IMG/VR virus record: IMGVR_UViG_3300035529_000070 | Location: 122,114 to 183,532 of that record | Strand: one strand, 5' to 3' | Source of the DNA: a virus | DNA length: 61,419 nt | Shown here: positions 2,463 through 48,417 of the stretch, piece after piece | Layout: the number at the start of each line of letters is the position of its first letter | How positions within the stretch are numbered: the stretch's first letter is position 1 | Notes under the pieces: model-generated | What the model saw: only the letters and a program-made list of their open reading frames with translations | Told to the model about the DNA's origin: nothing | Database searches by the model: none | Program-made: the position numbers and the translations under genes

Positions 2463-3113
2463 TTACAACCATGTACTTTCTATAGAAAAATTGTTAAACT
2501 GTTTTAATGCTTTATCTAAAATATATATTTTTTTCAATTGTATTTCTTCCAATTCAGAGAACCCACCTCGGTTTAAAACATCAACTATATCGGGTCTATT
2601 TTGGATTTTCTCGTATTTATTCTCAATTTGTGTCCTTTCTATTGATCCTGGTAATTCGATTCCATAATAAGCCAATAACGGATGGCTGATTATTATTCCA
2701 AATTGTTTAGTCCACATTTGTCTTATATAACTTTTTACTTCTTCATTAAATTGTTTATTTGGCCTAAGTTTTTTGAGTAAGTCTAAAGTGACTATAAGTT
2801 CTATATCTTCAATTGGTTCTAAAGATTCTGTATCACCTAATCCATCTACTATAAAGTTTGCAATACTGTGAAAAACATGCCATTGTTCAAAGATCAAATT
2901 GGAAGTCAAAAGGGCTTTATAAGCCCTTAATTTATTTTTTAAACTTTCAGACATTTTAACTCCTAGATATTTAGAAATATAAAACTCTAAAGTATCTATG
3001 GAGTTATTAATGTCAATATTTATATTTTTTTTTGCAAAAAATTGTTTTAATAAATTAAATATTTTTTCTGGATGAATAGAATTAGGTTCTGTAATTATTG
3101 ATAAATCAGCCAT
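2463..3113 (-). CDS. Hypothetical virion-morphogenesis protein
   Basis: 216-aa ORF translationally coupled to upstream gene, between it and portal. Confidence 0.6.
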   Translation of the reverse strand: MADLSIITEPNSIHPEKIFNLLKQFFAKKNINIDINNSIDTLEFYISKYLGVKMSESLKNKLRAYKALLTSNLIFEQWHVFHSIANFIVDGLGDTESLEPIEDIELIVTLDLLKKLRPNKQFNEEVKSYIRQMWTKQFGIIISHPLLAYYGIELPGSIERTQIENKYEKIQNRPDIVDVLNRGGFSELEEIQLKKIYILDKALKQFNNFSIESTWL

Positions 3114-4201
3114 TAACCTCTAACGCTCCTTATTTTTTGCCAAATGGCATCTTGAGTTTCTATTGGTAGTTCAGGCCATATGACATCTGGGTTTTCTAAC
3201 AAAGCTTCAGCGGTATCTTCTTCTATTATACCGTCAAAATCATTAGAAACCAAATATAAATCATCTAAAGAGGGTTTTGCTGCTGCTGTTTTCTCTACTT
3301 CTAATTCATCTATCCAATTATTCATTGCTTCTTCAGGAGTACCTATGATAGCATAATACTTATCTAAAGATGCAACTTTATCAAGTTTTTCCATTCTTTC
3401 AGCAAATTCATCTGGTGTAAAATAGCTTGATACTTTGTATAATTTTTTATATCCTTCCTTGACTTTAGCACTAGATGCTAATTTTACCCTCTTTTCAACA
3501 ATTTCGTGTAAATTCTCTGGATAAATATTAACACCTGCATATTTGTTTAGTGGATTAGTTTCAGAAATATTGATATTATATTGTTTAGCTTTCTGCCTTA
3601 TATTTTTTGCTAAAGTTGTACGTTGTTTGGGTGGCAAATTTTTATACGTTTTGCCAAACATACTTATAGCGAATTGAACATGATTTTCATCATGCATAGG
3701 AAATTTTCTAACTTTTTTGCCATTGTTATTTATTACTAAGCCAAATGTTGAATCTGGCAAACTATTTCTTTCTTCTTTACCTAACTTAGCTGCTGTTTTT
3801 TTCATTTGCATATCTTCTACTGTCGGTACATTATCTTCTATAAAATGTATTACTGGATATTCTGGATTGAATTGTTTTGCAATATTAGCGTATTTAGACA
3901 AACCAAAAGGAATTTCTAATCCGTATTTGTTACCAGCAGACATTATTCTTTTAGCTACTTTATTAACACAATTCATAGGTAATTTGCTGGCATTTTTTTC
4001 AAAATATTCTATAGAAATACTTGTATTGGTTTCCGAATCTAAAGGATATTTAGGGTATGAATTCCCTTTGTGATCTCTGAAAATAACAGCATGTTTATTA
4101 TTAGGTGGTCTGTTTAAAGAAGCGGATTTCCTAATATCAGATGCGACTTTTTCAAAAGAATCGTCATACTGATCAAATATTTCCCCTACTAAATTAAACA
4201 T
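3113..4201 (-). CDS. Putative inner-head protein with two tandem ~60-aa domains (DUF6582-like ERNSLPDSTFG...RKFPMHDENHV) and multiple K-x-A sites
   Basis: Internal repeat PKYPLDSETN...KYGLEI / RKFPMHDENH...QYNINI; FEKVA, FEKNA, LSKYA, MKKTA, LNKYA, LDKVA, VEKTA. Confidence 0.55.
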   Translation of the reverse strand: MFNLVGEIFDQYDDSFEKVASDIRKSASLNRPPNNKHAVIFRDHKGNSYPKYPLDSETNTSISIEYFEKNASKLPMNCVNKVAKRIMSAGNKYGLEIPFGLSKYANIAKQFNPEYPVIHFIEDNVPTVEDMQMKKTAAKLGKEERNSLPDSTFGLVINNNGKKVRKFPMHDENHVQFAISMFGKTYKNLPPKQRTTLAKNIRQKAKQYNINISETNPLNKYAGVNIYPENLHEIVEKRVKLASSAKVKEGYKKLYKVSSYFTPDEFAERMEKLDKVASLDKYYAIIGTPEEAMNNWIDELEVEKTAAAKPSLDDLYLVSNDFDGIIEEDTAEALLENPDVIWPELPIETQDAIWQKIRSVRG

Positions 4202-4261
4202 CTAAATCACCTCATATCTTTATTTATAGTAGCGCGCAATACATTAGTTATCAGAATATAT

Positions 4262-4960
4262 TCAAGTTTGTGTCTCAGAGCTTTTTGGTGGTTCGTTTAT
4301 TGGATTTATCCTAGTAAAAGTAAATTGTAGATTTTCTGCTACCATTACATTATTAGACGACAAGCTCAATGAATAACTTCCCAAAAGAACATCTTTTAAT
4401 TCAATTATTTTTTTAGGATATTCCCCTATATTATCAAGCCCAGTTGTAGCCGTACCGCCACTAGAAGTTCCAACTGTTGTATCAAATTGAGTACCACTAC
4501 CATACATAGCTATAATTAATGATACTTCATTTGAAAACAATTGAGTTAACATACTGAATATTACTTTATTCTTTTTTGTTGTAGCATCATAAAATTCATC
4601 TGGAGAAGATGAACTTTTTATAAAATTGAAATATTTTAAAAGATTTCCTGTATTCATTTGCAATTTAGCTATAGATAAATTTCCACTTACCATACCTTCA
4701 GCAAAGTCAGAAAGATCAGATCCTATTTCAAAAAACCTTTGTAATTGTTTTGATTGATTCAAACTAAGATTTTGTATCATACCTACTGGGACTAAATCAT
4801 CTGCTTCTGTAAATTCTTTAACTATGTAATAATGTGATCCACCAGTATCTTTTTTAACTGGTAGCATTAACAAAAAATGACTACCTTTAACAAAATCAGA
4901 TGTGTTATATTCTTTTTGTTCTACAAACTCTTTCTTTGGGTTCCAAGCTGTATGTGCCAT
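4262..4960 (-). CDS. Tail tube-like protein (paralogue 2)
   Basis: VGMIQNLSLNQSKQLQRFFEIGS...GNLSIAKL...NVMVAENLQFTF, parallels neighbour; follows sheath. Confidence 0.65.
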   Translation of the reverse strand: MAHTAWNPKKEFVEQKEYNTSDFVKGSHFLLMLPVKKDTGGSHYYIVKEFTEADDLVPVGMIQNLSLNQSKQLQRFFEIGSDLSDFAEGMVSGNLSIAKLQMNTGNLLKYFNFIKSSSSPDEFYDATTKKNKVIFSMLTQLFSNEVSLIIAMYGSGTQFDTTVGTSSGGTATTGLDNIGEYPKKIIELKDVLLGSYSLSLSSNNVMVAENLQFTFTRINPINEPPKSSETQT

Positions 4961-4974
4961 CCTTCAAACACCTC

Positions 4975-5526
4975 CTAAGATATTGGAACATCGGTTATTT
5001 TGACAAATTGGAAAGAAGCTGATTCAATTACCATTGGTTGGCCGGCACTTATATTTAAACTCTTATTCTGTATTTTGGCTTTTTCAATTTTTGCTTTTCC
5101 CACTATAGAAGCACTTGATCCTGTCAAGTTATTCTTATCAGCTCCAGAAGTTGTTTTTGGATCAAAAGCATATATATATAAATCTGTAGCTTTACCGAAA
5201 GTGGATAATATATCCATTTCTAATCCACTAATATCATTATGTGTTGCAGATAAAATACCTTCTTCAAATAATAAAACTTTTGATAAACTGATACTCCCTT
5301 GAAATGGGCCCGGCAAATATTTAGGTAGTAAGCTTCCAATCTCAGAAACAGGTTGGTTCATTCTAGCTTCTTGCAATTGAAAATCTTGCAGCATACCTAT
5401 TGCTATTTGTGAACCATTACCATCATCTATGGCAATTGCAAATCTATATGAGGATAACAAATCAGATTCTTTTGGGCTTAACATTTTTTCAACATTCTGA
5501 TCTAATTTCCATTCTTTCATAGCCAT
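4975..5526 (-). CDS. Tail tube protein (paralogue 1)
   Basis: IGMLQDFQLQEARMNQPVSEIGS...GSISLSKV...MVIESASFQF; directly after sheath gene. Confidence 0.7.
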   Translation of the reverse strand: MAMKEWKLDQNVEKMLSPKESDLLSSYRFAIAIDDGNGSQIAIGMLQDFQLQEARMNQPVSEIGSLLPKYLPGPFQGSISLSKVLLFEEGILSATHNDISGLEMDILSTFGKATDLYIYAFDPKTTSGADKNNLTGSSASIVGKAKIEKAKIQNKSLNISAGQPMVIESASFQFVKITDVPIS

Positions 5527-5549
5527 CTAGTACACCTCCATATATCAAC

Positions 5550-5567
5550 GGGGGCTATGAAGCCCCC
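5550..5567. terminator. GC hairpin between sheath and tube genes (terminator/attenuator or stabiliser)
   Basis: GGGGGCT-ATGA-AGCCCCC; no strong U-tract. Confidence 0.4.
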
Positions 5568-5575
5568 TCTATAAT

Positions 5576-7579
5576 CTATCTTGATTGAACTTTAAGAGTT
5601 ATTGTTCCACCCTTCATAGGTAATTCAGGGAAATAATTTATTGTTATATTTACAAATTTAGGATTTTCAGGATCAACCCCGAAATCATCCACTCTTACAT
5701 TTTTGTTTATAAGGCCTAGTTCAGCATGTCTTACTAATCTTTCATTAACCATATCAACTATTAATCTTATAGAACTCATAGTAAGATTTTGTGTGTTCTT
5801 TAGCTTATTTTGAACTAAATCATTTATATCTTTGGAAGACCAGTCAACAGATGCTACTACCGAATGTTCGCTTCCTTTAACATCTAAAGTATCTGTTGTA
5901 ACTTGATCTACCAATGTTGGTAGTCCTTCTACCCCTTGTTCTAAAACCATAAAGCCTGAAGCAGATAAATTTTCAATTTGTGCTTCATTAAAATACAATC
6001 TATTATCTAATGGATAATATACTCCTGATATCATTGGCAATGTTTGGTAAGTCAATTGATTGTAAGGTGTTGTTTCGTTCATATATCTTGCATTCAATGA
6101 CATAATAGCTGCTGCTCCATAGACGCCAGGTACAGGATAAGCAAACCCATTATAATTTACCTTTATAACTGGATTAAAGAAAACGTTTAATCTTTTTTCA
6201 TTTACGCTATCAATCTTAGAAGTAACATCTTCCAATATAGCTGATTTATCATTAGTAGAGAAATTAACAGAAGCATCATTAAATCCGTTAAATCCTAAAG
6301 TAAATTTCACATAATCCATTTTACTTTCTCTAGTTTTAATAAATGAATTCACTTGAGGCAATATAGAGAAATTAGATAACATTATGTATGAATACATGTC
6401 TCTTTCTGCCAACATGTTCATTTTATCTTGAATATCAACCATATCATTTAAATCAAATATAGAATCATAATCATGGTCGCTAACTGTTGTTGCAGCAGCA
6501 TATACTCCTCGTCCTGAACCACTAATAACCAAATTACATCCATAAGATAAAGGGTTCAAAGGATGAATAGGTCCAAAGTTACTTTCTATATCATTTTTGT
6601 CTCCTATATATTTAAGAGATGTATATATTGGATTATCCACATTATATTCAACTATTAACTCTTTATCAGTCATACTATAAGAAGGATTGATGTAGATCAA
6701 ACCTCTCATAGGATCAACATAATATTCAGGATCTACAGCTGTGGACTCAGAAAAATCTCTATCTTGTAAAAAATCTGGATAATAAACAAACTCTTCTTCT
6801 ACATCTATTGGATTATCAGGGTCAGAATCATTGACATAAAAAGTTTTTACAGTCAAATAAGCTGTAGGGTTTGTTGATGAAAATTTTATAGGATTATCTT
6901 TTAACTCAAATACTGTTTGATTTGTCTCCATATTTCCCATTGCAGTAGAAAATGATTGAGTTTTAGATATAGTTTTCTTTTTTACTGCTTTATATTCTAC
7001 CAATATAGCAAAATTATTGTTTGATGTACCATCAGATTCAATAACAATAGGTTTAGTAGATCCTGCTAAATTATGTGGGGTTGGAACTGTTCCAGAACCA
7101 TTTTGATCTAATAATAAGCTAGGAATTATAATTTTATCTTTTGTTATTCCACCAATTACAATATTCCCTTGGTTATCATCCCATTCTGTTTCTTTAACTA
7201 CTTTAGTTATATCCACATAAGATACATCAATCCCTGGAACTTTTAGAGGTGGGAACCCTCTGAAATAATCTCTAGAAAAATTTCTAATTCCTATATCTAA
7301 AGATTCAGAAGCTGGAATTAAATAAATCTTAACAGAATCTAAATCCACTTCATCATATAATTCGTTTCTTTTTGGATATCCAATAACAGTGTTATTAGCT
7401 GCGCCTGTTTTATAATTTATTCTGTTTCCAGATGCATTTAAAACTAAAGCATCTTGTCCTTCAACTATAATGTTGCTTGCACCAATTATACCTGTTGGAA
7501 ACGCAGGTATTTGTGAATTTAATTGTTGTTCTTGTATATATTCTTGTTTTATGTTAAAACCTGGACTTCTATAAGCCAT
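5576..7579 (-). CDS. Contractile tail sheath protein
   Basis: Start MAYRSPGFNIKQE after GGAGGTG; PTGIIG; IESNFGPIHPLNPLSYG; C-terminal sheath domain (FNEAQIENLSASG, DQVTTD...EHSVV..VD, INYFPELPMKGGTITL). Confidence 0.85.
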   Translation of the reverse strand: MAYRSPGFNIKQEYIQEQQLNSQIPAFPTGIIGASNIIVEGQDALVLNASGNRINYKTGAANNTVIGYPKRNELYDEVDLDSVKIYLIPASESLDIGIRNFSRDYFRGFPPLKVPGIDVSYVDITKVVKETEWDDNQGNIVIGGITKDKIIIPSLLLDQNGSGTVPTPHNLAGSTKPIVIESDGTSNNNFAILVEYKAVKKKTISKTQSFSTAMGNMETNQTVFELKDNPIKFSSTNPTAYLTVKTFYVNDSDPDNPIDVEEEFVYYPDFLQDRDFSESTAVDPEYYVDPMRGLIYINPSYSMTDKELIVEYNVDNPIYTSLKYIGDKNDIESNFGPIHPLNPLSYGCNLVISGSGRGVYAAATTVSDHDYDSIFDLNDMVDIQDKMNMLAERDMYSYIMLSNFSILPQVNSFIKTRESKMDYVKFTLGFNGFNDASVNFSTNDKSAILEDVTSKIDSVNEKRLNVFFNPVIKVNYNGFAYPVPGVYGAAAIMSLNARYMNETTPYNQLTYQTLPMISGVYYPLDNRLYFNEAQIENLSASGFMVLEQGVEGLPTLVDQVTTDTLDVKGSEHSVVASVDWSSKDINDLVQNKLKNTQNLTMSSIRLIVDMVNERLVRHAELGLINKNVRVDDFGVDPENPKFVNITINYFPELPMKGGTITLKVQSR

Positions 7580-7658
7580 CGTACGTACACCTCCTATTTT
7601 ATTCAATACCATACACGATAAAATTTTACCATTTCTCTAATTAATAGTTAGTTTAATG

Positions 7659-8231
7659 TCAATCACTCTTTTTGTCGCTATTAGTTATAACTTTTATTCC
7701 TTCTAAAATTTCGTCAAAAACTTCAAAGTTCATTTTATAATCAAACAGTATATTAATTTGTAAAGGAATATTATATAAAGGATTACCGCCATTTTGTATA
7801 AGCATAGCAGAATTTACTCCCACAGGATCAACTTGATGAAAAAAATTCTCAAATGTAGTTTTATCTCGTTGAAGTTGCAAAAAATACTGGGTACTCAATC
7901 TATATCCTTCAACCTCATCAGGTGTTATAAAACTAACAATAGCATTTGTAGCCATCAAAAATGTATGTGGACCTGTTTTATATAATTGTGAACCAGTTTC
8001 ATTAGGAAAATAATTGGTAGCATCATTTATGCCTGTAACATCAACCAACACGACAACTCTTTTATTACCTTTACTATTAAACTCTACTGAGTTAAAAGCG
8101 AAACGTATATCAAATTCTTCCTCGTTCAATTCCATTACTTCAGACATAAAAAAAGTTAAATGTTTTATGAAAACTGACGCAATGTTCTCATGAAAAGACC
8201 AGTTAAATTCTTTTGGAGTCGTTGAATCCAC
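7659..8231 (-). CDS. Putative tail completion/terminator protein
   Basis: 190 aa, position between neck genes and sheath. Confidence 0.45.
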   Translation of the reverse strand: MDSTTPKEFNWSFHENIASVFIKHLTFFMSEVMELNEEEFDIRFAFNSVEFNSKGNKRVVVLVDVTGINDATNYFPNETGSQLYKTGPHTFLMATNAIVSFITPDEVEGYRLSTQYFLQLQRDKTTFENFFHQVDPVGVNSAMLIQNGGNPLYNIPLQINILFDYKMNFEVFDEILEGIKVITNSDKKSD

Positions 8232-8734
8232 GGTATCACCATCCCTAAATTTTGTCTAGCTTCCATTACAGATTCAGAAACACTATCGACAACTGTATCT
8301 CTTAAATAGTACCTGGCTTCTATTCCTGGATTCCACCAGCCACCACGTTCTAAGGATTCTTGGGAAACATATCTTATAATAGTTCTTCCATCATTTGTTT
8401 TAATCGGAACCCTTTTCCCTCTCAAATAAGTCATTTGCCTAGGGCTCGTTCCTTGTTCTAAATAGTTAAAAATTTTATTGCTGGATACTATTCTTACACC
8501 ACTTGCTTCAGAAGTAATGTTTATATCTTGAAGGAATTTTTTAATAGCTCTATTAGACAGTCTTCTATCTCTTAATAAAGTTATCCTAATATTTTCTATA
8601 ATATTTCTTGCAACGGCATTAGCTGATGTATAATTCGAATCAGCCCAAGTCAAAAGGTATGTAAGTTCGTTCCCTTTGTTTATTGTGTTCAAGGTGAACC
8701 GATAAGAATCTTCGTAAAATATCATATTTTTCAC
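8165..8734 (-). CDS. Putative neck/tail-completion protein (HK97 gp10-like)
   Basis: NYLEQGTSP...WWNPGIEARYYLRDTV resembles the YLExGT...PG...F motif of this class. Confidence 0.55.
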   Translation of the reverse strand: MKNMIFYEDSYRFTLNTINKGNELTYLLTWADSNYTSANAVARNIIENIRITLLRDRRLSNRAIKKFLQDINITSEASGVRIVSSNKIFNYLEQGTSPRQMTYLRGKRVPIKTNDGRTIIRYVSQESLERGGWWNPGIEARYYLRDTVVDSVSESVMEARQNLGMVIPWIQRLQKNLTGLFMRTLRQFS

Positions 8735-9509
8735 CTTCTTCCCCTAAGATAGATTGATATAAAATACTATTTAAATTAGTGATAGTTTTTGCAGCTGAAA
8801 TTTTAACTATTATATCGTGTGTGTCAAAGTATAGAAAATCGCCTTCATATGCTGGAATAGATAAAGCAGCTATCACATTAATTCTTTGATCTTTTAGCAT
8901 AGGCTTTTTATTATTAGTTTGATTAGAGTTTTTAGTATAAGTGCCATAAAAATCTATCCCTTTTAGGTATCCCCCTTTGAATCCTGTTCCATAACATATA
9001 TTACAATTTGGATTACCTGCTTTTTTTAAAGTCGGGTTATAGCATTCGCACAATTCCCCGCCTTTTCTAAGTTTGAACAGATAACCATGTACAGCCCCAC
9101 CATTTTTAAATTGTAGCTCAAGGGTCTCTCTCATCCTTTTAGTGACAAGATCTTCTTGCTCGTTTATAGATATGAACTCCGTTTTATATTCTTTGCCTGT
9201 CTTCGTATCAATCATAACAAGTTGATACCAAATATATCTATTGAAAAAATGGTGATCTTCTCTATATAATATGTCACGATAAAACTCTACAAAGTCAGGT
9301 AGTTTTATCTTTTTTATAATATCGCCAGGGGTGTCCAATGATCTGTACAAAAACACATCCCACCTATCGGCATCGAATTTATATTCATTATTAAATTCCC
9401 AAGTTAACATATAACCTAAAGGGTCTACAAATACTTGAAAGTCTTTAATATATTTCACATTTACCACCATCCCCAGCCTGTTACTCCTCCTGTATCGAAG
9501 ACACCCCAT
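8640..9509 (-). CDS. Putative head-closure/neck protein with Zn-finger
   Basis: CECY...CNICYGTGFKGGY motif; position after connector gene; true start probably ~9470. Confidence 0.55.
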   Translation of the reverse strand: MGCLRYRRSNRLGMVVNVKYIKDFQVFVDPLGYMLTWEFNNEYKFDADRWDVFLYRSLDTPGDIIKKIKLPDFVEFYRDILYREDHHFFNRYIWYQLVMIDTKTGKEYKTEFISINEQEDLVTKRMRETLELQFKNGGAVHGYLFKLRKGGELCECYNPTLKKAGNPNCNICYGTGFKGGYLKGIDFYGTYTKNSNQTNNKKPMLKDQRINVIAALSIPAYEGDFLYFDTHDIIVKISAAKTITNLNSILYQSILGEEGEKYDILRRFLSVHLEHNKQRERTYIPFDLG

Positions 9510-10111
9510 GCACTATCCATATTAGCTTGTCTTTTATATTCGTTTAAATAGTGCTGATATTTGGTGTTAAACATTTCAAACCATTTGTCAAAATGCTGAG
9601 TTTTATCTAAATTTATAGCTAATTCTCCGCCTTGCCATGGAACATTATTTCTTCCTGAAGCATCTGCAAGTCTTCTATAAGCATGGGATATAGATCCATA
9701 TATTATTATATTATCTATTTTCCCATATCCTTGTTCTAAAGTAAGTTTTTTAGTTAAAGGTGGTGTGAGGTTGAATTCTTTAAGTGTTTGTTTGATAAAT
9801 TCTATATATTGGCAATCTTTATAAAAGACTTTATTGAGTAACTTGTTGACTTCAGGATAGTCTCCAATTATAAGTCTTATAGCTTCTATATATTCTTTAT
9901 ATATTTTTGGTAAAGTCATATTTAATAGATTTACCATATATATTTGAGATTCAAATTCATCAGGAGCATCAGATTTTAATCTTGTCAAATTACTAAATCT
10001 AATCTCATCAACAAAAGTATTAGGTTTTATTAAATTAGTTAATTCTATAGTGTTCAGCATTGCCACATTATTAGTTGCGTATATTTCAGATGTACTCGTT
10101 TCAATAGGCAT
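9461..10111 (-). CDS. Putative head-tail connector (adaptor)
   Basis: IEAIRLIIGD helical motif typical of adaptors; position after capsid genes. Confidence 0.5.
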   Translation of the reverse strand: MPIETSTSEIYATNNVAMLNTIELTNLIKPNTFVDEIRFSNLTRLKSDAPDEFESQIYMVNLLNMTLPKIYKEYIEAIRLIIGDYPEVNKLLNKVFYKDCQYIEFIKQTLKEFNLTPPLTKKLTLEQGYGKIDNIIIYGSISHAYRRLADASGRNNVPWQGGELAINLDKTQHFDKWFEMFNTKYQHYLNEYKRQANMDSAWGVFDTGGVTGWGWW

Positions 10112-10172
10112 TACTACAACCCCCTTTAAAGAAAAAAGAGGACTTATATAAGCCCCCTTTTCTTATATATCA

Positions 10173-10577
10173 TTATGCTAAAAATTTATTGTCTAATTTT
10201 TCAATGATATCTTTTTTGGTATCGTTAGAAGTTATTTTTATGTCATTATCTTCTGCTATTTTTGTCAACTCTGCTTTAGTCATTTCGTCAGAATAATCAG
10301 GTATCTCTTCGGCTGATTCTTTTTTTGCAACATCTTTTATATCTTCAACTGATTCTTTTTTTGCAACACCTTTTATATCTTCAGCTGGTTCTTCATCAGA
10401 TAATTCTTTATAATCAATATAACCTAAATCTTTTAATTTATTCAAATCTTGTATAGTTCTTTCAAAATTATCCTCTATTGCGTCATAAACAATCGTTTTT
10501 CCTGAAGGAATAGCAGCAAATCTATTTAACAATCTTACTGGGAATTTAGCTTTATTTGTTACTTCAAAGTGTTTCAT
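10173..10577 (-). CDS. Head-associated protein with C-terminal HeH/Rho-N-like domain
   Basis: MTKAELTKIAEDNDIKITSNDTKKDIIEKL; typical of genes just downstream of a major capsid gene. Confidence 0.55.
   Translation of the reverse strand: MKHFEVTNKAKFPVRLLNRFAAIPSGKTIVYDAIEDNFERTIQDLNKLKDLGYIDYKELSDEEPAEDIKGVAKKESVEDIKDVAKKESAEEIPDYSDEMTKAELTKIAEDNDIKITSNDTKKDIIEKLDNKFLA
10313..10384. repeat. 36-bp in-frame tandem duplication (EDIKxVAKKES x2)
   Basis: ctgattctttttttgcaaca(t/c)cttttatatcttca repeated twice. Confidence 0.85.
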
Positions 10578-10933
10578 TTTCTAATTCCTCCTTTCAATGC
10601 TTCAACTTTCTTTACAGTTATTTTAGAATTATCTTCTCTAGGATTACCTGTTGATTGCAAAGCTTTTATATATTCTTTGGCTTTTTCTTTTTCTTCTTTT
10701 ATTTTTTTATCTCCTATTTTCAAATATTCTTCAAACTCTTTGTCAAATCCTTTTTCTATTTCTTCTTTCTCAAATTCTTTAGGCACTAAATACCCCATTT
10801 TTGTTAAATCTTCTAATTGATTAATCATTTCAGCTTTTGCATCTATAAGATCAACTCTTATAGTTGAACCTTTTTTATAACTTCTTAATCCCCATATTCT
10901 AACTTGTCCATTTCTAGTAACAAATTTAGCCAT
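10574..10933 (-). CDS. Hypothetical head-region protein
   Basis: 119 aa; LEDLTKMGYL resembles LNKLKDLGYI of the next gene (possible paralogy). Confidence 0.6.
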   Translation of the reverse strand: MAKFVTRNGQVRIWGLRSYKKGSTIRVDLIDAKAEMINQLEDLTKMGYLVPKEFEKEEIEKGFDKEFEEYLKIGDKKIKEEKEKAKEYIKALQSTGNPREDNSKITVKKVEALKGGIRK

Positions 10934-10968
10934 TAATATCTCTCCCTTCTCTGTAGCCTTTTTTTAAA

Positions 10969-10997
10969 AGCAAAAAGGGGAATTAAACCCCTTTTGC
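10969..10997 (-). terminator. Intrinsic terminator after major capsid gene
   Basis: GCAAAAGGGG-TTTAATT-CCCCTTTTTGCTTTT on minus strand. Confidence 0.7.
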
Positions 10998-11010
10998 ATT
11001 ATCAATTCAA

Positions 11011-11961
11011 TTAAGAATTTAATTCCAATTTTGCAACTGCTTTAGGGTTAATTATACTCATACCTAAATTAGACCATACTTGGAATGAAGCAATATTCTT
11101 CTCAACATCATGCCAGAATGTTAGGTCTTCATTTAGATAGAAGAATTTTCCTAAATAATCTTCATTGGTAAATCCAAATACTTCATTTTCGGCTACAACA
11201 TCTTTCTTGTTAGTTGTTAAGAAAGGTCTATTCATGAAAGTATCATAGTTATAACCTTTAATGAATGTTTCTTTAAATAATTCATCTCCAAGTTCAGAAG
11301 CAGGTAATGTAAGTAATTCATTGTATAACTTTACAGGGAATAACATTTTTTCAACTTTTAAAGGTTTGTCTGCAGTATCAATAAAATTAATCATATCCAT
11401 TACAGCTTTTTTGAATGAGAATCCAGTTGCACCAAAAGAAGCTGCGGTTTGTTGTCCAGTTGAATTAGTTGCGCTTCTACACATATCGACGAATTTCTTT
11501 TCAATTGCTTTTTCGAAATTATATGTTAATCTATTTTTGATAACTTCTGTGAATGGATATTTATATGCCCATAATTCTTCTTTTGTGAATTCAATTTCAG
11601 GAGAAATAACCTTATAAAAATATACAGGTGCTTTATCTCCTCTAACCCTTCTTGTTTCAGCTTCTGCTAAAAAGTCTCCATAAATTACTTCTTCTGATAA
11701 TTCTGGTTCTATTTCAATATATAACATTAAACTTCTACCAGCAGGATCTTGATCCAAATCATCTGGAGTAATTGTTTTTGGAGTAATAATACTTGGCAAA
11801 AACATTGCCTCTCTAAATTCAGTTTTTATTAAATCATTTATAGTTTTTCCAATTTCTTCACCAGCAGCAGTTTTTTCAAAGTAAGCATCAGAAATAAGCT
11901 CGTTAAAAGCCTTATTCCCTCCAACTGACCTTATTAATTCTTCTACTTTTAAATTATTCAT
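11011..11961 (-). CDS. Major capsid protein (HK97 fold), probably processed at YFEKTA
   Basis: ~316 aa; follows protease/scaffold/decoration genes; SPEIEF..EEL, EKAIEKKF, MSIINPKAVAKLEL C-terminus; terminator downstream; ATG 11961 has GGAGG SD. Confidence 0.8.
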   Translation of the reverse strand: MNNLKVEELIRSVGGNKAFNELISDAYFEKTAAGEEIGKTINDLIKTEFREAMFLPSIITPKTITPDDLDQDPAGRSLMLYIEIEPELSEEVIYGDFLAEAETRRVRGDKAPVYFYKVISPEIEFTKEELWAYKYPFTEVIKNRLTYNFEKAIEKKFVDMCRSATNSTGQQTAASFGATGFSFKKAVMDMINFIDTADKPLKVEKMLFPVKLYNELLTLPASELGDELFKETFIKGYNYDTFMNRPFLTTNKKDVVAENEVFGFTNEDYLGKFFYLNEDLTFWHDVEKNIASFQVWSNLGMSIINPKAVAKLELNS

Positions 11962-11979
11962 CAAAGACACCTCCTGTCA

Positions 11980-12477
11980 TTAATAAGTTCTTATTTTAAG
12001 TGCTACTACGTTTGAGCTTTCTGTGATAGTTTCTTCAACAACAGCTACAGATTTAACAGTTTCTCCAGCACCTGGAGTGATTGTTGCATTAGTTAGCACT
12101 GTTTTGTTACCGTCTTTTTTTGCAAACAATTCTTGTCCAGCCTCATACGCTTTTCCTGAAGTAGCCGCATCTTCGAAATTATCTGTTATCAATCTTGTTT
12201 TGCCAAAGAAAGCTGTTAATCCATTAGATGCTATAACGTCGTTTGTAATTCCCGAGCCATATACTTGCATATCTCTTCCTATATCTGATATAGTCCAGTA
12301 TACTAATCCATAGCCATCATAAGGAATTTGTTTATATTCATTATCTAAGATTGCGACAGGAGTACCTATTGCAAACATCTCTTTTTTTACATCTACATCA
12401 CTTATAGCGCTATCCATTTGTTTTGTATTTCTAGTAACATCTCTTAAGCTGTGAAGTAGTTCAAATCTTCTAGCCAT
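11980..12477 (-). CDS. Putative capsid decoration/cement protein
   Basis: 165 aa, beta-rich (YEAGQELF...LTNA...VAVV), immediately upstream of MCP. Confidence 0.55.
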   Translation of the reverse strand: MARRFELLHSLRDVTRNTKQMDSAISDVDVKKEMFAIGTPVAILDNEYKQIPYDGYGLVYWTISDIGRDMQVYGSGITNDVIASNGLTAFFGKTRLITDNFEDAATSGKAYEAGQELFAKKDGNKTVLTNATITPGAGETVKSVAVVEETITESSNVVALKIRTY

Positions 12478-12505
12478 CAGCGTACACCTCCAATATGTTT
12501 AAAAA

Positions 12506-13306
12506 TTACCCGTTTTTATATTTTTTCATTTTTTCTATTAATTCTTCAAATAATTCATCTGAAGTTTTTGGCCCGTTATTATCATTATATGAAGCTCTTT
12601 TGTTATGAGGTTCAGCTACATTTAATTCGTCATTTAAAACCTTTTCATTCCAATACTCGGCTTCTTTTTCTAATTCTTCATCATCTTTTTCTCTCATGAT
12701 TTTAGACTCTCTCAAAATATCAGAAGCTTTCATGTTAGTAAAATGAGCCTTTTTTTCTAAAACATCAGAAATAATGTTTTCTTTTTCTTCTTCCGAATAT
12801 AAAGACCTTTTTTTATTTTCGGGTTCTTCTGTAGTATTATCTTCAGCTGTTTTTTCATTTTCTTCAGAAACTTCATCTACCCCAAGTATAGAATCTAAAT
12901 ATTCATCGAAAGCATTTCTTTCGTTTGTTGAAGATGCTTCTTTTTGCATTTCATCAGTTTGATCAGAAGCAACTTTAAACTCAGACTCAGGACTATAATT
13001 TTGAGATAACGGAATTCTTTGTCCAGGGATTACTTGATCACCTTGCAATTGACCTTGTTGTACTTGTTCTCTCATTAAATCTAGCTGCATTTCTCTTAAT
13101 TCTTCTTGGTTTTTTTGAACTTTTTTATTATCTTTTATCCCTTGATAAGCAGAAGCAGCTAAAACTCCAGTTCCTAACGTTCCAGCAATCCCAGAGGCCA
13201 TCTGTGTAGCTTTGAGAGCTGTGTCAATCGCTTTTCCTTTGGCTGCAGCTGTTTTAGTAATACCTTCGTTTGAGTTCAGTAATAAATAACCTACAACTCC
13301 ATTCAT
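12506..13306 (-). CDS. Scaffold/inner-head protein with glycine-zipper segment and many K-x-A sites
   Basis: ITKTA, FKVAS, MQKEA, NEKTA, LEKKA, LEKEA; ASGIAGTLGTGVLAASA; acidic coiled C-terminus. Confidence 0.55.
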   Translation of the reverse strand: MNGVVGYLLLNSNEGITKTAAAKGKAIDTALKATQMASGIAGTLGTGVLAASAYQGIKDNKKVQKNQEELREMQLDLMREQVQQGQLQGDQVIPGQRIPLSQNYSPESEFKVASDQTDEMQKEASSTNERNAFDEYLDSILGVDEVSEENEKTAEDNTTEEPENKKRSLYSEEEKENIISDVLEKKAHFTNMKASDILRESKIMREKDDEELEKEAEYWNEKVLNDELNVAEPHNKRASYNDNNGPKTSDELFEELIEKMKKYKNG

Positions 13307-13326
13307 GGGAGCACACCTCCCTTCAA

Positions 13327-13863
13327 TTACATTCCTGGTGCAGATGGAACACTTGTATTTCCCATTGTAGCTTGAGCAGGAGCACTGTATTGTTCAAATC
13401 TTTGTTGCCCAGTAGCATTATGAGCTTGAGTTCCGTTAACTACTGCTTTACCTTCTTCAAATTTTGGTGCTAATTCAGAGTTATTTTTTACCAAATCTTG
13501 TAATCCATTTTGCATTACGAAAGCATAAAATTGAGCTGGTAACATTTTGTCTGATTGCTGTTTAATTTCTTGTGTTGCAATAGCTGGAGTTACAGTATCA
13601 GTTGTTGGAACTTGTGTAGGTGTCACTGTTTTTGGATCGGGGTTGCCATTGCTGACATTTCCTGCAACCATTTGATCTGTCAAATCACCAGCTACCTTAT
13701 TCATTCCTATTCTTTGCCCCATACCAAAAATTAAACCTTGTCTAAACATTTCAGCATCTTCGGCAGTTTTTACTAAGCCGTTAGTTTGTTCAGCTGCTTC
13801 TTTAATAAATTCGTTATTTTCTGCAATTTTTTCAAAATCATCAGTTGACCATGTTCTTTTCAT
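13327..13863 (-). CDS. Scaffold/inner-head protein
   Basis: FEKIA, FIKEA, LVKTA, MNKVA clustered in N-terminus; follows protease. Confidence 0.5.
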   Translation of the reverse strand: MKRTWSTDDFEKIAENNEFIKEAAEQTNGLVKTAEDAEMFRQGLIFGMGQRIGMNKVAGDLTDQMVAGNVSNGNPDPKTVTPTQVPTTDTVTPAIATQEIKQQSDKMLPAQFYAFVMQNGLQDLVKNNSELAPKFEEGKAVVNGTQAHNATGQQRFEQYSAPAQATMGNTSVPSAPGM

Positions 13864-15299
13864 TACAAATTACCTCCTTTATTTTTCAAAAAGTTAACGA
13901 CAAAATCGTTATAAATATTAAGTGTTTCATCTGATGCAGCTTTATAAATCATCTTATAGTGAGTTTCTCTCGGATCCGAAGCATAATATGGCTGATGTTC
14001 AATAGGCGAATTAAACTCTCTAAAAGCTTGGCTGTATATTTGATCTTGCTTCCTTATCGTGGATTGATAAATTTCTTCTTCTAATCGTTGAAGATTTTTC
14101 CCGCCTTCCACTAATATGTCATTTGCTAATTCTTTAGTTAAGTTGCCGAGCAGACTATAAATATCATTTAATTCTGTTTTAGATGACATACTAGCTACCT
14201 TTATGTAGCCCTTATATCCCGGATCTTCCATATTAAAATGATCGGGATTATAAAAGTTTCCGGAATCATGATTAGCTATAAGATGAGGTATAAAACTTCT
14301 TCTCATAATTAATGATAACATGCGTTTTACTAACCCCCGGTTAAAACGTCCTTTGTTAAACGCATACGCAAAAGTGTCTGGTGCATCAGTCATAATATAT
14401 AAGCCGGGGCCCGCTATCCGCCTAACCTCTATAGGTTTTAATGGGACTTTCATCAAAGAAAATGTTTTTATTATATCTTCATCTGGATACTCACTCAATT
14501 GTTGATATTCTTCTTCTTGTATAGGTTTATCTTGTAAAAATTTTTGATTTAAGTATTTTTTAATTTCATATGGTTCTATTTCTTTTAATGCATCTGCTGG
14601 TATTTCTTTATCAATTGCAGCTTGTTTGTCTGATTTATCAGACGCTACTTTTGCAAATACTTTTGCTGTAACTTCTGCTCCTCTAGTAACTTTTGAAATA
14701 TCAAAAAATTTAGGATTAATATTTATAGCATATACTTTTCTACCATCAGGAAGTATATTATTCATTTTAAATTTTAAATGATCACAATATTCACTTCTTT
14801 TAGTAGCCGCATTACCACATATAGAACATACATCAAAAGGCACAGTACAGCCCATAGATACATCTATAGTTTCCCCATTTTCAAGTTCAGCCATCATTTT
14901 TTTCCCTTTTGGATTGCTCATATCGACAGATACTATGAGTTCTACTCTATCCATCCTATCATTCCAAAATGATTTTATTATTTTTCCAAAAGATTTAGCA
15001 GGGTCTTTGTTCACATGATGTTCAAATAGGTGTCCATCTTCAAAAGTATGATATGTTTTTAACAACTCATCTCTAGGAAAATAATCACCATTCCTATTAG
15101 CACCCCATGATTCACCAGCAGAAACAGCTATAACTGCAATATATCTGAAGTTATCTTCTGTTTTAAGTTCTTCTTTAAAACGAATCAATTCTGGGGTGAG
15201 CACATTTAAAGCTGCATTTTTTTCCATAGTTTTGTTTTCATCTATCACAAAAACATTATCTTGTAAAGTAAACTGAAACCCGTTTATTTCCTTATACAT
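13863..15299 (-). CDS. Prohead maturation protease (HK97/assemblin-like Ser protease) with Zn-finger and C-terminal extension
   Basis: NRNGDYF, LFEHH (His), G+II, DVSMGC (Ser), CSICGN...CDH, FFDISKV; between terminase and MCP. Confidence 0.75.
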   Translation of the reverse strand: MYKEINGFQFTLQDNVFVIDENKTMEKNAALNVLTPELIRFKEELKTEDNFRYIAVIAVSAGESWGANRNGDYFPRDELLKTYHTFEDGHLFEHHVNKDPAKSFGKIIKSFWNDRMDRVELIVSVDMSNPKGKKMMAELENGETIDVSMGCTVPFDVCSICGNAATKRSEYCDHLKFKMNNILPDGRKVYAININPKFFDISKVTRGAEVTAKVFAKVASDKSDKQAAIDKEIPADALKEIEPYEIKKYLNQKFLQDKPIQEEEYQQLSEYPDEDIIKTFSLMKVPLKPIEVRRIAGPGLYIMTDAPDTFAYAFNKGRFNRGLVKRMLSLIMRRSFIPHLIANHDSGNFYNPDHFNMEDPGYKGYIKVASMSSKTELNDIYSLLGNLTKELANDILVEGGKNLQRLEEEIYQSTIRKQDQIYSQAFREFNSPIEHQPYYASDPRETHYKMIYKAASDETLNIYNDFVVNFLKNKGGNL

Positions 15300-15303
15300 A
15301 AAA

Positions 15304-15705
15304 TCACAACCCTCTGGCCATTAAAGTCGAATATTGTAACAGCATATTCGGATCTATACCTCCATAATTAAATGCTTTTTTTACTGCTTCTTCTACAGCG
15401 TATGGAGAATTAAATAAATTTGGAACTATTTGAGCAATGGACAATAAGTATTTTCTTAATTCTTTTTTATCCCATTGAGGATATTTCTGAGATAAAATTT
15501 GTTCCATTCTAAGTATATCTTGCTTGGATACTATAATCCTTTTGTCTTTTCTAGATTGATTAGATAGAGCTTCTGATAGCCCTACCGCTGTTCCTCTCAT
15601 ACCAGTATTTACGTTATCTATCATTGCAGGCAACGTATTACCTAATCCCATATCATCTTGGTCCTTTGGTGGGTTGGGGACGTTATAATTAGGAAAATTT
15701 GGCAT
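15304..15705 (-). CDS. Hypothetical head-region protein
   Basis: 133-aa ORF with AGGAGG SD. Confidence 0.6.
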   Translation of the reverse strand: MPNFPNYNVPNPPKDQDDMGLGNTLPAMIDNVNTGMRGTAVGLSEALSNQSRKDKRIIVSKQDILRMEQILSQKYPQWDKKELRKYLLSIAQIVPNLFNSPYAVEEAVKKAFNYGGIDPNMLLQYSTLMARGL

Positions 15706-15723
15706 TGCACGTATCCTCCTTTT

Positions 15724-15748
15724 TTAAAAACCCCGCATTAGCGGGGTA
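15724..15748 (-). terminator. Intrinsic terminator
   Basis: ACCCCGC-TAAT-GCGGGGTTTTT on minus strand. Confidence 0.65.
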
Positions 15749-15750
15749 CA

Positions 15751-15939
15751 TTAAAATTTATTATCTTGTTGTTTGAATTTCGGTGATTTCCCTGTCGAAA
15801 TATTGTCTGACTGTAAAGCCTTTTCAACTTCAGTTTTCTGCATTTTTTTACCTGCATTTTTTGGTTGAGGCAAATCAACGTTTTTAAAAGGCTTTACTTT
15901 TTTGATTTTCGCAGTCTTCCAAAATTCATCAATAATCAT
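15751..15939 (-). CDS. Small basic internal-protein candidate with leader MIIDEFWKTA
   Basis: 62 aa, Lys-rich after leader; AAGGTG SD. Confidence 0.6.
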   Translation of the reverse strand: MIIDEFWKTAKIKKVKPFKNVDLPQPKNAGKKMQKTEVEKALQSDNISTGKSPKFKQQDNKF

Positions 15940-15949
15940 TTAAATCACC

Positions 15950-16453
15950 TTAATAATCAATGTTTTGTGATATTACATACATATTATAAGATGCTTCTTT
16001 AATTAAATCTCCTGGAGTTCCGAATAATTCCATATGAGCTCTAAATCTACCCTTTTCCCCAGCGAAACCTTGTGATTCCATATAATAAGAAGCGTCTTTT
16101 TCCATAGCAGCAATTGTGTTAGCAACATCATTTAATTCATCTGATGATAAATTGCTAGCTAAATATTCAGCAACTTTAGCTAAATAACCTGTTTCTTCAT
16201 ATCTTCTTTTAGCAACAGAAGCATTTTTTTCCATTTCTTCTTGTGCATCTTCGAAATTGCCTCTATAAGTTTTTAACATATCGTTAGCTGTTAAAATATC
16301 CAAATAAGCAATTTTCAATAAATCCCTATCAGTATAGTTGTTTTGTGTTATTTCTTCGTATAAAGCAGAAGCAGTTTTTTGTAATTCTTCACCATCTTCT
16401 TGGAAATATTCTGGCATTTCATTACTCACTTGCATAAGACCATCTCTTAACAT
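15950..16453 (-). CDS. Inner-head/core protein with repeated K-x-A sites
   Basis: LQKTA, LLKIA, MEKNA, LAKVA, MEKDA, LIKEA in 167 aa. Confidence 0.6.
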   Translation of the reverse strand: MLRDGLMQVSNEMPEYFQEDGEELQKTASALYEEITQNNYTDRDLLKIAYLDILTANDMLKTYRGNFEDAQEEMEKNASVAKRRYEETGYLAKVAEYLASNLSSDELNDVANTIAAMEKDASYYMESQGFAGEKGRFRAHMELFGTPGDLIKEASYNMYVISQNIDY

Positions 16454-16466
16454 TTAAAAAACCTCC

Positions 16467-18149
16467 TTAATATTTTTCGTTTTTATTATAATCAGGGACT
16501 TCTGGACCTGTCATTGCCCCCATCATTCCACCTATAATACCAGATGCTTTAGAGCCTCTAAGTGAATTTCTTTTAAGCTGTTCATTTAACTCGTCTACGA
16601 CTTGCTGCTGAGCGTTACTCTTATTTGTAGCAGCAATAGCAGATAAAGTATCTCCATCTAGTCCTTTACCTTTTAATTGTCCTTTATATTTTTCCATTTT
16701 AAATCTTGCATTTCCGGCAGATATTGCTCCTCCGGTAGCTGCCCCTAAAGCAACACTCTTTAATCTTGATCCCATATATTGTTTCCTAGCTTCATTTAAT
16801 CTTTTTTCTTTTTCTGCATTTGTTATTTTACCTTGTTCATACATGCTTTTAATTTCATTTTGCCTTTTTTTATAAGCAGAATTTTCTGAAAAACCAGTTA
16901 TAGCTCCAGAGGTTGCAGCGCCAGTTATAGCTCCTTTGGCGCCAGAATATAGAGGTATATGCTTTGAATTTTCAAAAAAAGAGTCAATAGTTTTCCCCAT
17001 CGCATTAGCAGCTACTTTTTCAAAATAATCTTCATCTATTATATTATGATCTAAAGCAGTTTTAATTAATTTGGCATTATTTAATGTATCTTCTTGAAGA
17101 TTAGCGATTTTATTGAACCCTTTTGACACCTCATAAACATTATATAATAACTTTTGTTGTTCGTCGGTTATAGAGCCGGTTTCTAAAACAGATGCAATTT
17201 TCTCCTGCTTTTTTCTATTGTTAATGGACATTTCGGCTGTTTTAATATCAGATCTGATAGTATCTTTAAAATAGTTTAAATTTGCTATTTTCATCAAAGA
17301 CTCATATGTTTTATCAGCCCCTCTTTCTTCAACTTCATTTTCTATAGCTTTTTTATAGGCTAATTTTTCATATCCTCCATCAGATTTAATTCCTTTTAAG
17401 ATATTCTTTAGATTTTCATCATTCATATGTTCAGATGCAGTTTTATTAAATAAAGCTTTTTTTGCTTTCTCAATTATTTTTTGAATGATTTTCTTAGCTT
17501 TACTTTTTTCTTCGTATTGTAGATTTTCTTTTTCTATTTCAGAAATCAGAATAGCTTCTAATTGTTTAGGAGGTATTTTTTGAATAATTTTTTTTGTGTT
17601 TTCTTCTATTTCTCTTACTTTCATTTTTTGCTGCATATCAGTTACTCTGAATTCATCTTCAGCTAATTTTATATGATCTACAGCTCTATTTACATCTTTT
17701 AAAGATAAAGTTTCTGCAAAATAATCTCTTTTTGTTTTTTCTTTTTTGTTATCAGATGCAGTTTTTTGTATTTGAGGTTCAACCCAATCGTCTACTTTAC
17801 CCCAATCTATATCATCCATTAGCCAATCATCTTTATTTAAAGTTTCAGGTGTATATTCTTGTTTGATATTAGTACTCATAGATACTTTGTTTGGGCCTTC
17901 CCCGGTTCTAATATATTCCATAACATTTTCAATTCTAGCCATAGGAAATTCCACTTGATTATTTTCAAACATTTTTATTTGTATTAACTGATTAGATCTT
18001 TCAACAAGCCTTTTAACCTCATTATGATTTAATCCATTATCGACAGATAATTTAGCAATAATAACATCAGGGGTTGTCGCTGAGTTAGCTAAATAATTTT
18101 TCGCAACTGCCGAAGCCAATAAATCAATTTGAGTTTTTAAATTAGCCAT
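16467..18149 (-). CDS. Large inner-head/ejection protein candidate: K-x-A-rich coiled region plus C-terminal glycine zippers
   Basis: IQKTA, FNKTA, YEKLA, LMKIA, FNKIA, LIKTA, FEKVA; GAKGAITGAATSGAITG, ALGAATGGAISAG, GIIGGMMGAMTG. Confidence 0.55.
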   Translation of the reverse strand: MANLKTQIDLLASAVAKNYLANSATTPDVIIAKLSVDNGLNHNEVKRLVERSNQLIQIKMFENNQVEFPMARIENVMEYIRTGEGPNKVSMSTNIKQEYTPETLNKDDWLMDDIDWGKVDDWVEPQIQKTASDNKKEKTKRDYFAETLSLKDVNRAVDHIKLAEDEFRVTDMQQKMKVREIEENTKKIIQKIPPKQLEAILISEIEKENLQYEEKSKAKKIIQKIIEKAKKALFNKTASEHMNDENLKNILKGIKSDGGYEKLAYKKAIENEVEERGADKTYESLMKIANLNYFKDTIRSDIKTAEMSINNRKKQEKIASVLETGSITDEQQKLLYNVYEVSKGFNKIANLQEDTLNNAKLIKTALDHNIIDEDYFEKVAANAMGKTIDSFFENSKHIPLYSGAKGAITGAATSGAITGFSENSAYKKRQNEIKSMYEQGKITNAEKEKRLNEARKQYMGSRLKSVALGAATGGAISAGNARFKMEKYKGQLKGKGLDGDTLSAIAATNKSNAQQQVVDELNEQLKRNSLRGSKASGIIGGMMGAMTGPEVPDYNKNEKY

Positions 18150-33792: not shown

Positions 33793-34050
33793 TTACATAC
33801 CGAGTGCACCTAGTTGATTTATTGTATTTTTTAAACTAGCATTTTCTTTTATTTGTCTTGCAGCTCTGCCCATATCTGAGTAAGTATTATATTGGTTTTT
33901 TGGTTTGCCTATTTGTTTTAATTTCCTTTTCCATTCTTCAGGTATGGCTTTATCGTACAACAGCTTTCCTCCAACGGCTCCTCCTAATACAGCTATAGGA
34001 GCAGCATAATTTTCTAAATTAGCTGTTTTTATAAATTCATCTCTTATCAT
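33793..34050 (-). CDS. Small internal-protein candidate with leader MIRDEFIKTA and Gly-rich hydrophobic helix
   Basis: APIAVLGGAVGGKLLY after leader; AAGGAAG SD. Confidence 0.6.
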   Translation of the reverse strand: MIRDEFIKTANLENYAAPIAVLGGAVGGKLLYDKAIPEEWKRKLKQIGKPKNQYNTYSDMGRAARQIKENASLKNTINQLGALGM

Positions 34051-48110: not shown

Positions 48111-48140
48111 AAGAGGGCGCTCAGCCCTCTTTTTTTACCT
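48111..48140 (+). terminator. Bidirectional terminator, AAGAGGGC/GCCCTCTT family
   Basis: AAGAGGGCGCTCAGCCCTCTTTTTTTACCT between convergent genes. Confidence 0.75.
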
Positions 48141-48417
48141 TCACAACGATTTCTTGGCCCTCTCTAATAGGTTTAGTCGTTCTTAAAATATAACGCCCTC
48201 TATTGACCGTATACGTAGAGTTAGGATTATCATTATCTATAGTTATATTCTTACCAAGTAATGTATCTTGGAATTTCTTGTTGTGCAAATCTCCTACAAA
48301 CTGTCCGGGTTTTATATCAGTTCTAGAGACAATCTTTTTCTGTCCATTAGTAATATCGTTTTCTATAATTATTCTGTTTTTCATCCCAGAAGTTTTTATA
48401 AATTCTTTATGAATCAT
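48121..48417 (-). CDS. Degenerate SET-like domain protein with leader MIHKEFIKTS
   Basis: IVSRTDIKPGQFVG ... NPNS ... ILRTTKPIREGQEIVV matches SET pattern (FATRDIKKGEFI...PN...A.RDI..GEEL); NH and terminal Tyr missing. Confidence 0.55.
   Translation of the reverse strand: MIHKEFIKTSGMKNRIIIENDITNGQKKIVSRTDIKPGQFVGDLHNKKFQDTLLGKNITIDNDNPNSTYTVNRGRYILRTTKPIREGQEIVVKVKKEG

Follow-up and report, generated by a model that had tools for sequence, protein, structure and literature searches.

What does a peptide pattern signify that recurs, protein after protein, through the head region of a phage? The question is raised by the final 61.4 kb (61,419 nucleotides; the window) of a 183.5-kb viral contig of IMG/VR (IMGVR_UViG_3300035529_000070, positions 122,114 to 183,532; completeness ~82%, GC ~30%), where open reading frames (ORFs) of the late structural block repeatedly encode [FLMIVY]-x-K-x-A, hereafter h-x-K-x-A. 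An initial annotation of the window had read the pattern as the signal of a head protease. Our analysis leads to the same reading: with a probability of roughly 0.8, h-x-K-x-A is the signal at which the phage's own prohead protease, the product of ORF 13863-15299, cuts. The motif is more frequent than composition predicts and, unlike control patterns, exceeds its expectation; it is conserved in hundreds of distant homologues of the protease and the capsid protein as well as in related phages; from these sequence data we infer the cutting itself, the bond that is cut and the packaging of the substrates.

Enrichment of the motif in the head region

Non-overlapping ORFs were called over the whole contig, and the number of motif copies expected in each protein was obtained by shuffling that protein. 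Among the 210 ORFs of the 183.5-kb genome we counted 133 copies of h-x-K-x-A against 77.6 expected (z 6.2), and the excess was steeper when Ser or Ala followed, with 41 copies of h-x-K-x-A-[SA] against 8.6 (z 10.3). The late structural block consists of minus-strand genes running from 18207 down to ~620, and seven of its products, listed here with their lengths in amino acids (aa), are conspicuous.

16467..18149, minus strand: poorly structured protein, 560 aa; 7 sites, at residues 127-380, against 1.79 expected
15950..16453, minus strand: core- or scaffold-like protein, 167 aa; 6 sites against 0.30 expected
13863..15299, minus strand: prohead protease with C-terminal extension, 478 aa, catalytic domain at ~residues 30-219; 4 sites against 0.89 expected
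13327..13863, minus strand: 178-aa protein; 4 sites, within the first 58 residues, against 0.27 expected
12506..13306, minus strand: scaffold-like acidic protein, 266 aa; 4 sites against 0.49 expected
11011..11970, minus strand: major capsid protein (MCP), HK97 fold; 1 site (FEKTA, residues 31-35, nucleotides 11866-11880) against 0.72 expected
3113..4201, minus strand: DUF6582-containing protein, 362 aa; 9 sites against 0.85 expected

All of the pentapeptides quoted in the initial annotation were found in the ORFs to which it had assigned them, with two of its lists falling short: the 3113-4201 protein carries nine sites instead of seven (IRKSA and VNKVA are additional), and the protease four instead of two (adding YIKVA, from residue 365, and IYKAA, from residue 451). 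The annotation had also proposed comparing head ORFs with all others against a shuffled background. In that comparison the head set, which was picked post hoc with the data already seen, holds 36 motifs in 2690 aa and the rest of the genome 97 in 54871 aa, or 0.0134 against 0.0018 per residue, a ratio of 7.6 (Fisher 5e-18). The candidate sheath protein at 5576-7612, the ORFs of the tube region, the terminase and most metabolic ORFs have no site at all, in line with the rarity that had been judged by eye for sheath, tube and metabolic genes.

Scaffold proteins rich in Lys, Ala and Glu could in principle produce such a pattern as a by-product of their composition or of amphipathic and coiled-coil helices, with no signal involved, and the substrates proposed here are indeed helical or disordered and charged. 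The per-protein shuffles, however, control for composition. In addition, 20 control patterns, in which Lys was replaced by Arg, Glu or Gln, Ala by Ser, Gly, Thr, Leu or Glu, the order was reversed (A.K.h) or any other spacing was used, gave observed-to-expected ratios of only 0.85-1.33; h..KA, hK..A, h.K..A, A.K.h, h.E.A and h.R.A are all unenriched. The excess is thus confined to h-x-K-x-A among the patterns, which argues against both composition and helical periodicity, and since the helix-compatible controls are unenriched we rejected a compositional or helical artefact. The cleavage motifs of T4 and phiKZ likewise showed no enrichment in the ORFs of this genome.

The enrichment of the head module is common to eight related phages, two of them cultured (Salmonella phage Arash and Vibrio phage D69). 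L009, the closest of the long relatives, comes from a biogas fermenter; the same motif picture is seen in D69, in Arash and in another five metagenomic relatives (GC 33-49%). In these relatives, several small genes between the terminase and the MCP have 5-9 sites where fewer than one is expected, the MCP has one site at ~residue 21-31 (except in L008, which has none by the strict pattern), and sheath and baseplate genes have no sites. Relative to L009, in which overall identity is 37-55%, 24 of 35 sites are preserved whole, against a background conservation of 0.56 for Lys and 0.48 for Ala. For the products of 15950-16453, 13327-13863 and the protease gene, all 14 sites are kept.

The prohead protease, the capsid protein and their conserved sites

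To characterize the enzyme, we modelled the first 250 residues of the 13863-15299 product with AlphaFold2 (AF2), using 25 homologues (predicted local distance difference test, pLDDT, 80). The best match of the model in the PDB is the T4 prohead protease gp21, 5JBL (chain 5JBL_B: Z 11.1, root-mean-square deviation 2.7 Å over 132 aa; Foldseek probability 0.99-1.0), followed by herpesvirus proteases with Z of 7-9.6. The herpesvirus enzyme, assemblin, is made as part of a protease-scaffold fusion, pUL26 or UL80a of human cytomegalovirus (HCMV), whose release and maturation sites it cuts at (V/L/I)-x-A|S. Residues H95 and S148 are invariant across the 25 diverse homologues (alignment A1), and together with the fold they bear out the initial assignment of this ORF as the head protease, with the serine of VSMGC as its nucleophile. 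A weak profile alignment (hhalign, E 0.009) places S148 on Ser140 of gp21, NRNGDYFP on NRNKRLYP of gp21, and HHVNKDP beside His85 of gp21; His85 and Ser140 are the catalytic residues of gp21, and the spacing from His to Ser is roughly the same in the two proteins.

15213..15227, minus strand: N-terminal site MEKNA, residues 25-29, followed by Ala
15015-15017, minus strand: predicted catalytic residue His95, invariant
14856-14858, minus strand: predicted catalytic residue Ser148 (VSMGC), invariant
14778..14828, minus strand: insertion CSIC...YCDH with invariant C158, C161, C172 and H174
14643..14657, minus strand: post-domain site FAKVA, residues 215-219, followed by Ser; placed like the assemblin release site
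14193..14207, minus strand: extension site YIKVA, residues 365-369; conserved in the L009 orthologue
13935..13949, minus strand: C-terminal site IYKAA, residues 451-455, 23 aa from the C-terminus; placed like the assemblin maturation site

By sequence, the protease matched no Pfam family at E <= 0.1 (Peptidase_S77/U9, S78 and S21 included), no NCBIfam family and no PDB profile; its sole named match is PHROG 18299, 'head maturation protease' (5.9e-8). Because the curated families miss the protein while its fold matches, it belongs to a sequence clade of the gp21/assemblin fold that stands apart and has yet to be curated. The region of the MEKNA site is disordered in the model (pLDDT < 50). Within the 158-174 insertion, the Cys/His cluster has no counterpart in the T4 gp21 sequence. 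H174 belongs to this cluster and also lies 26 residues past S148, a spacing like that in HCMV; the four residues may bind zinc, or H174 may instead complete the catalytic triad. Cutting at all four motifs of the protease is predicted to yield pieces of 29, 190 (the catalytic domain), 150, 86 and 23 aa. A predicted complex between the protease domain and the first 60 residues of the MCP scored 0.13 (mark 0.32) and counts neither way.

More than 1100 homologues of the protease, nearly all without a name, were found in the databases at E <= 0.001, and we surveyed the sites of the best 120. The strict N-terminal motif lies ~25 residues in for 101 of the 112 homologues that bear the sequence anchor by which it was located, the exceptions mostly having K-T-A. 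On the other side of the domain, a motif with the consensus L-x-K-V-A-S occurs no more than 40 aa behind an FFD anchor in 112 of the 120, although ~10 of these hits are an intradomain V-x-K-P-A and not the post-domain site. The catalytic domain is thus flanked by the motif in ~85-93% of the homologues, with K27, A29, K217 and A219 nearly invariant (alignment A1). Site density is 0.0105 per aa in the variable C-terminal extensions against 0.0011 in the catalytic domain itself. In half of the homologues (60/120) a site lies between 12 and 50 aa before the C-terminus (modes 21-23 and 30 aa), and the C-terminal site IYKAA is conserved in homologues P0002-P0004.

The product of 11011-11970 had been named as the MCP, and its AF2 model (40 homologues, pLDDT 82) confirms an HK97 fold by matching HK97, SaPI1 and other capsids (Foldseek E 1e-10, probability 1.0); a match to NCBIfam capsid_Caudo_2 (3.2e-7) is sub-threshold. 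A word-index search returned four close relatives only, and the rest were reached by exhaustive search, which gave 372 relatives at 21-33% identity with homology beginning just past the site. A K-x-A lies upstream of an RE anchor, mostly 12-13 aa away, in 112 of 125 MCP homologues, compared with 6.7% of control windows drawn from the same proteins. The MCP would lose a 35-aa propeptide to give a predicted mature protein of 284 aa. Positional conservation across hundreds of distant homologues and orthologues is impossible to obtain from composition, and the MCP, which is no scaffold, keeps its lone site fixed in place; we find the notion that the motif is a compositional by-product barely tenable.

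Probable position of the cut and the candidate substrates

We then examined where within the motif a cut would fall. We pooled 237 sites, taken from nine phages and 43 enriched proteins. Apart from the three positions by which the sites had been selected, P1' carries 0.71 bits, with Ser 4.5-fold favoured, then Ala and Glu; Val and Thr at P2, Glu at P4 and Gly or an acidic residue at P6 add information, which is down to noise past P2'. A second line of evidence is a family of leaders. Nine real ORFs across the genome begin with M-I-x-x-E-F-(I/M/W)-K-(T/S)-(A/S) and show no relationship beyond residue 10 (a tenth match, a 27-aa frame, was left out). Their upstream DNA is unrelated, with only the ribosome-binding site in common, and the codons of the leaders vary synonymously. 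As in capsid targeting sequences of the T4 type, a short N-terminal peptide that ends in a protease motif heads otherwise unrelated proteins. Three of the nine lie in the window.

15751..15939, minus strand: 62-aa protein, leader MIIDEFWKTA; similarity stops at codon 10
33793..34050, minus strand: 85-aa protein, leader MIRDEFIKTA; same leader family, beyond the range 3113-18149 of the initial annotation
48121..48417, minus strand: 98-aa protein, leader MIHKEFIKTS; Ser replaces Ala

A second type of leader, M(I/L)KTARYYK(L/I)A, places two overlapping motif copies at the extreme N-terminus of two further proteins (genome positions 2284-2667 and 23115-23519, both minus strand).

The divergence of the leaders after Ala or Ser, together with information ending at P1', indicates that the functional unit ends at the Ala, and the spacing of i, i+2 and i+4 is in keeping with a substrate that lies in the enzyme as an extended strand. 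If the motif is a cleavage signal, the cut would thus very probably follow the Ala. The proposed specificity of Ala at P1, Lys at P3 and a hydrophobic residue at P5 fits these data, with P5 being a preference and not a rule. The same enzyme could instead read the same signal in a trypsin-like manner and cut after Lys, so that Lys would be P1, Ala P2' and the mature N-termini x-Ala. Lys is as invariant as Ala, and maturation of HK97 gp5 involves a cut that follows Lys. Nevertheless, the leaders are conserved through T-A past the Lys and lose similarity only thereafter, the information extends to the residue after Ala and is gone beyond it, and a strict requirement at P2' would be unusual in this fold. 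Its structural relatives read P1 and P3: T4 gp21 cuts after L/I-x-E and the SPN3US enzyme after A-x-E (PMC10052503). Assemblins, for their part, cut between Ala and Ser. On balance we regard a cut after Lys as improbable.

The motif might also be a docking element that is never cut and that recruits proteins into the procapsid by binding to the protease, to the scaffold or to the inside of the capsid. It labels one and the same set of head-module proteins, the leaders resemble targeting tags, and the case for cleavage rests on sequence. The sites, however, lie where prohead proteases process their substrates: in the N-terminal arm of the MCP, at the ends of the catalytic domain, ~20-30 aa from the C-terminus of the protease and, in scaffold-like proteins, at intervals of 20-40 aa. 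A series of protease subsites would read just such an i, i+2, i+4 arrangement, ending in a small residue with Ser or Ala behind it. The code accompanies a single protease clade and is missing in a diverged mycobacteriophage branch. Docking and cutting are compatible with each other; docking in place of cutting appears to us very unlikely.

Several points weigh against h-x-K-x-A as a cleavage signal, or against its details. Roughly one in two of the distant MCP sites has a non-hydrophobic P5, and some copies of the motif may be used differently or not at all. Of the 35 sites compared, 11 are absent from L009, and these may be unused or fast-evolving. The scissile bond is placed only by the end of conservation and by analogy with assemblin. 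The paper on the Arash virion proteome and its supplements (PMC10585845) contain no peptide lists and no N-termini. Lastly, the much more distantly related cluster C mycobacteriophage I3 (gp103) has no enrichment of either h-x-K-x-A or h-x-R-x-A, so the specificity is not family-wide. In I3 (L003), the counterpart of the protease domain forms the N-terminal part of gp103 (11899-16125), a 'hypothetical protein' of 1408 aa that is encoded directly upstream of the major head protein; gp103 resembles a giant protease-scaffold fusion, so far unannotated, with a different cutting code.

With h-x-K-x-A as the protease's signal, we propose the following course of head maturation. A procapsid would form from the HK97-fold MCP around a core made of the products of 12506-13306, 13327-13863, 15950-16453, 16467-18149 and 3113-4201, a 611-aa protein encoded elsewhere, and the fusion of the protease with its extension. 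The protease would grip its substrate as an extended strand, read Leu, Met or Phe at P5, Lys at P3 and Ala at P1, and cut after the Ala, preferably ahead of Ser or Ala. It would release itself at the N-terminal and post-domain sites and lose a C-terminal tail of ~23 aa, the MCP would be trimmed by 35 residues, and the core proteins would be chopped into pieces of 10-60 residues able to exit the shell. The 10-residue leader MIxxEFIKT(A/S) would be removed from the small unrelated proteins, which would thereby probably be delivered into the head, as T4 internal proteins are.

Several of the candidate core proteins have predicted cleavage products of distinct kinds. The acidic 12506-13306 protein sits between the protease and the MCP, as gp22 does in T4, and would be cut after residues 20, 124, 187 and 216; two of its four sites are conserved in L009. 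The 13327-13863 protein, with all four sites present in L009 at 52% identity, would shed its first 58 residues as four small pieces, and the 15950-16453 protein, with all six present at 50% identity, would if fully cut give seven pieces of 13-33 residues. Three of the seven sites of the 16467-18149 protein are found in L009. This protein has a Gly/Ala-rich C-terminal stretch of 180 aa, which would be retained as one piece, its Atlas model has a pLDDT of 0.56, and family searches were empty; by family searches and fold it was unrecognisable as any known head protein. We considered it as a portal and rejected the idea, given the lack of a family match and the poor fold, with a weak portal match falling on 620-2446 instead. 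Gly/Ala-rich segments that resemble glycine zippers occur in this protein (residues ~400-560) and in the 12506-13306 protein (residues ~20-60). They would remain on the predicted mature pieces after cutting at K-x-A, and such pieces may be membrane-active ejection proteins.

The 3113-4201 protein matches DUF6582 (E 2.3e-7; Atlas model pLDDT 0.63) and retains four of its nine sites in L009. Some phage proteins in Atlas clusters join DUF6582 to Peptidase_S78, a hint that the domain is connected with capsid maturation more generally. The heaviest motif load of the genome falls on the 611-aa ORF at genome positions 90695-92530 (plus strand), with 14 sites against 1.7 expected. It lies ~30 kb before the window, on the opposite strand and far from the head module, and its copies recur every 25-40 residues between residues 155 and 490.

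Relation to known prohead proteases and setting of the block

The class of mechanism proposed here, in which a prohead protease recognizes a short motif, core proteins are cut on a large scale and leaders target proteins to the head, is already known from T4 and from phiKZ and SPN3US. The resemblance to T4 gp21 covers the fold, the alignment of Ser148 with Ser140 and the arrangement of small core genes, protease, scaffold and MCP, which parallels T4 genes 67-68-21-22-23. It would extend to self-processing, trimming of an MCP propeptide and cutting of scaffolds at many sites, and the predicted cuts mirror the action of gp21 on gp23, on itself, on gp22, gp67 and gp68 and on internal proteins. 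The 10-residue leader ending in the cut motif also has its likeness in T4, where the leader is MKTYQEFIAE and likewise contains EFI. Unlike in gp21, P1 here would be Ala and not Glu and P3 Lys and not Leu or Ile, with a hydrophobic preference at P5, and the phage protease has a 260-aa C-terminal extension with sites as well as the CxxC...CxH insertion. The MCP, too, differs, being short, of the HK97 type and with a predicted propeptide of 35 aa, and sequence likeness to T4 is below detection by Pfam, NCBIfam and PDB searches.

With assemblin the protease shares, besides the fold, a presumed Ala at P1 and a preferred Ser at P1', an N-terminal protease on a longer chain, and sites behind the domain and ~23 aa from the C-terminus. 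It differs from assemblin in being closer to gp21, in the obligatory Lys at P3 and in having its main scaffold-like proteins encoded by separate genes. Extensive cutting of head and ejection proteins has been described for phiKZ gp175, at (S/A/G)-x-E, and for SPN3US gp245, at A-x-E (PMC10052503, PMC5694885). Our phage resembles these in being a large myophage with multiple propeptide motifs in many head and internal proteins and, presumably, in the protease cutting itself; it differs in the code, K-x-A instead of A-x-E, in the protease clade and in being known from sequence alone.

The literature that we covered on prohead protease motifs, capsid targeting sequences, DUF6582, Bxz1 and 0305phi8-36 describes no K-x-A specificity. 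What differs here is the proposed specificity, the uncurated protease clade, and release-like and maturation-like sites on a protease-extension fusion that resembles pUL26. We would give even odds to a broader proposal: a large unannotated clade of the gp21 fold, including the enzymes of Arash and D69, switched P1 from Glu to Ala, puts together in a single chain an Ala|Ser cut, sites of the release and maturation kinds and a fused extension, is the closest phage counterpart of assemblin, and uses its code as an address label for the processed and packaged proteome. Prohead protease motifs are known for few model phages (T4, phiKZ/SPN3US and HK97), where head, scaffold and injected proteins have been told apart chiefly with their help, and a different code is now defined for a large clade of proteases otherwise labelled 'hypothetical', with two cultured phages within it. 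If the cleavage reading is true, h-x-K-x-A would reveal from sequence the processed, capsid-packaged and probably injected proteome of large, mostly uncultured phages, and dozens of unknown genes per genome could be annotated as processed head, scaffold or cargo. It would also provide a sequence-level bridge, within one fold, from the Glu specificity of the T4 type to the Ala|Ser specificity of the herpesvirus type.

Within the window, the block as a whole is ordered as follows.

18207 down to ~620, minus strand: large terminase; five ORFs of unknown family; 13863-15299; three ORFs; 11011-11970; tail-region genes; portal candidate 620-2446

The large terminase that heads the block matches PHROG 675 (4e-61). 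No GenBank phage matched 10 kb of the head module by megablast, and a scan of IMG/VR with the back-translated protease found no locus. The product of 620-2446 has the sole portal-like match in the window, a weak one over a short stretch (PHROG 16240, 1e-7), and its gene is placed downstream of the tail genes, away from the terminase. In one relative, L006, a gene for ribosomal protein bS21 (6331-6546) adjoins the terminase gene, and this ties the protease clade to the bS21-encoding phages of freshwater (PMC9723584).

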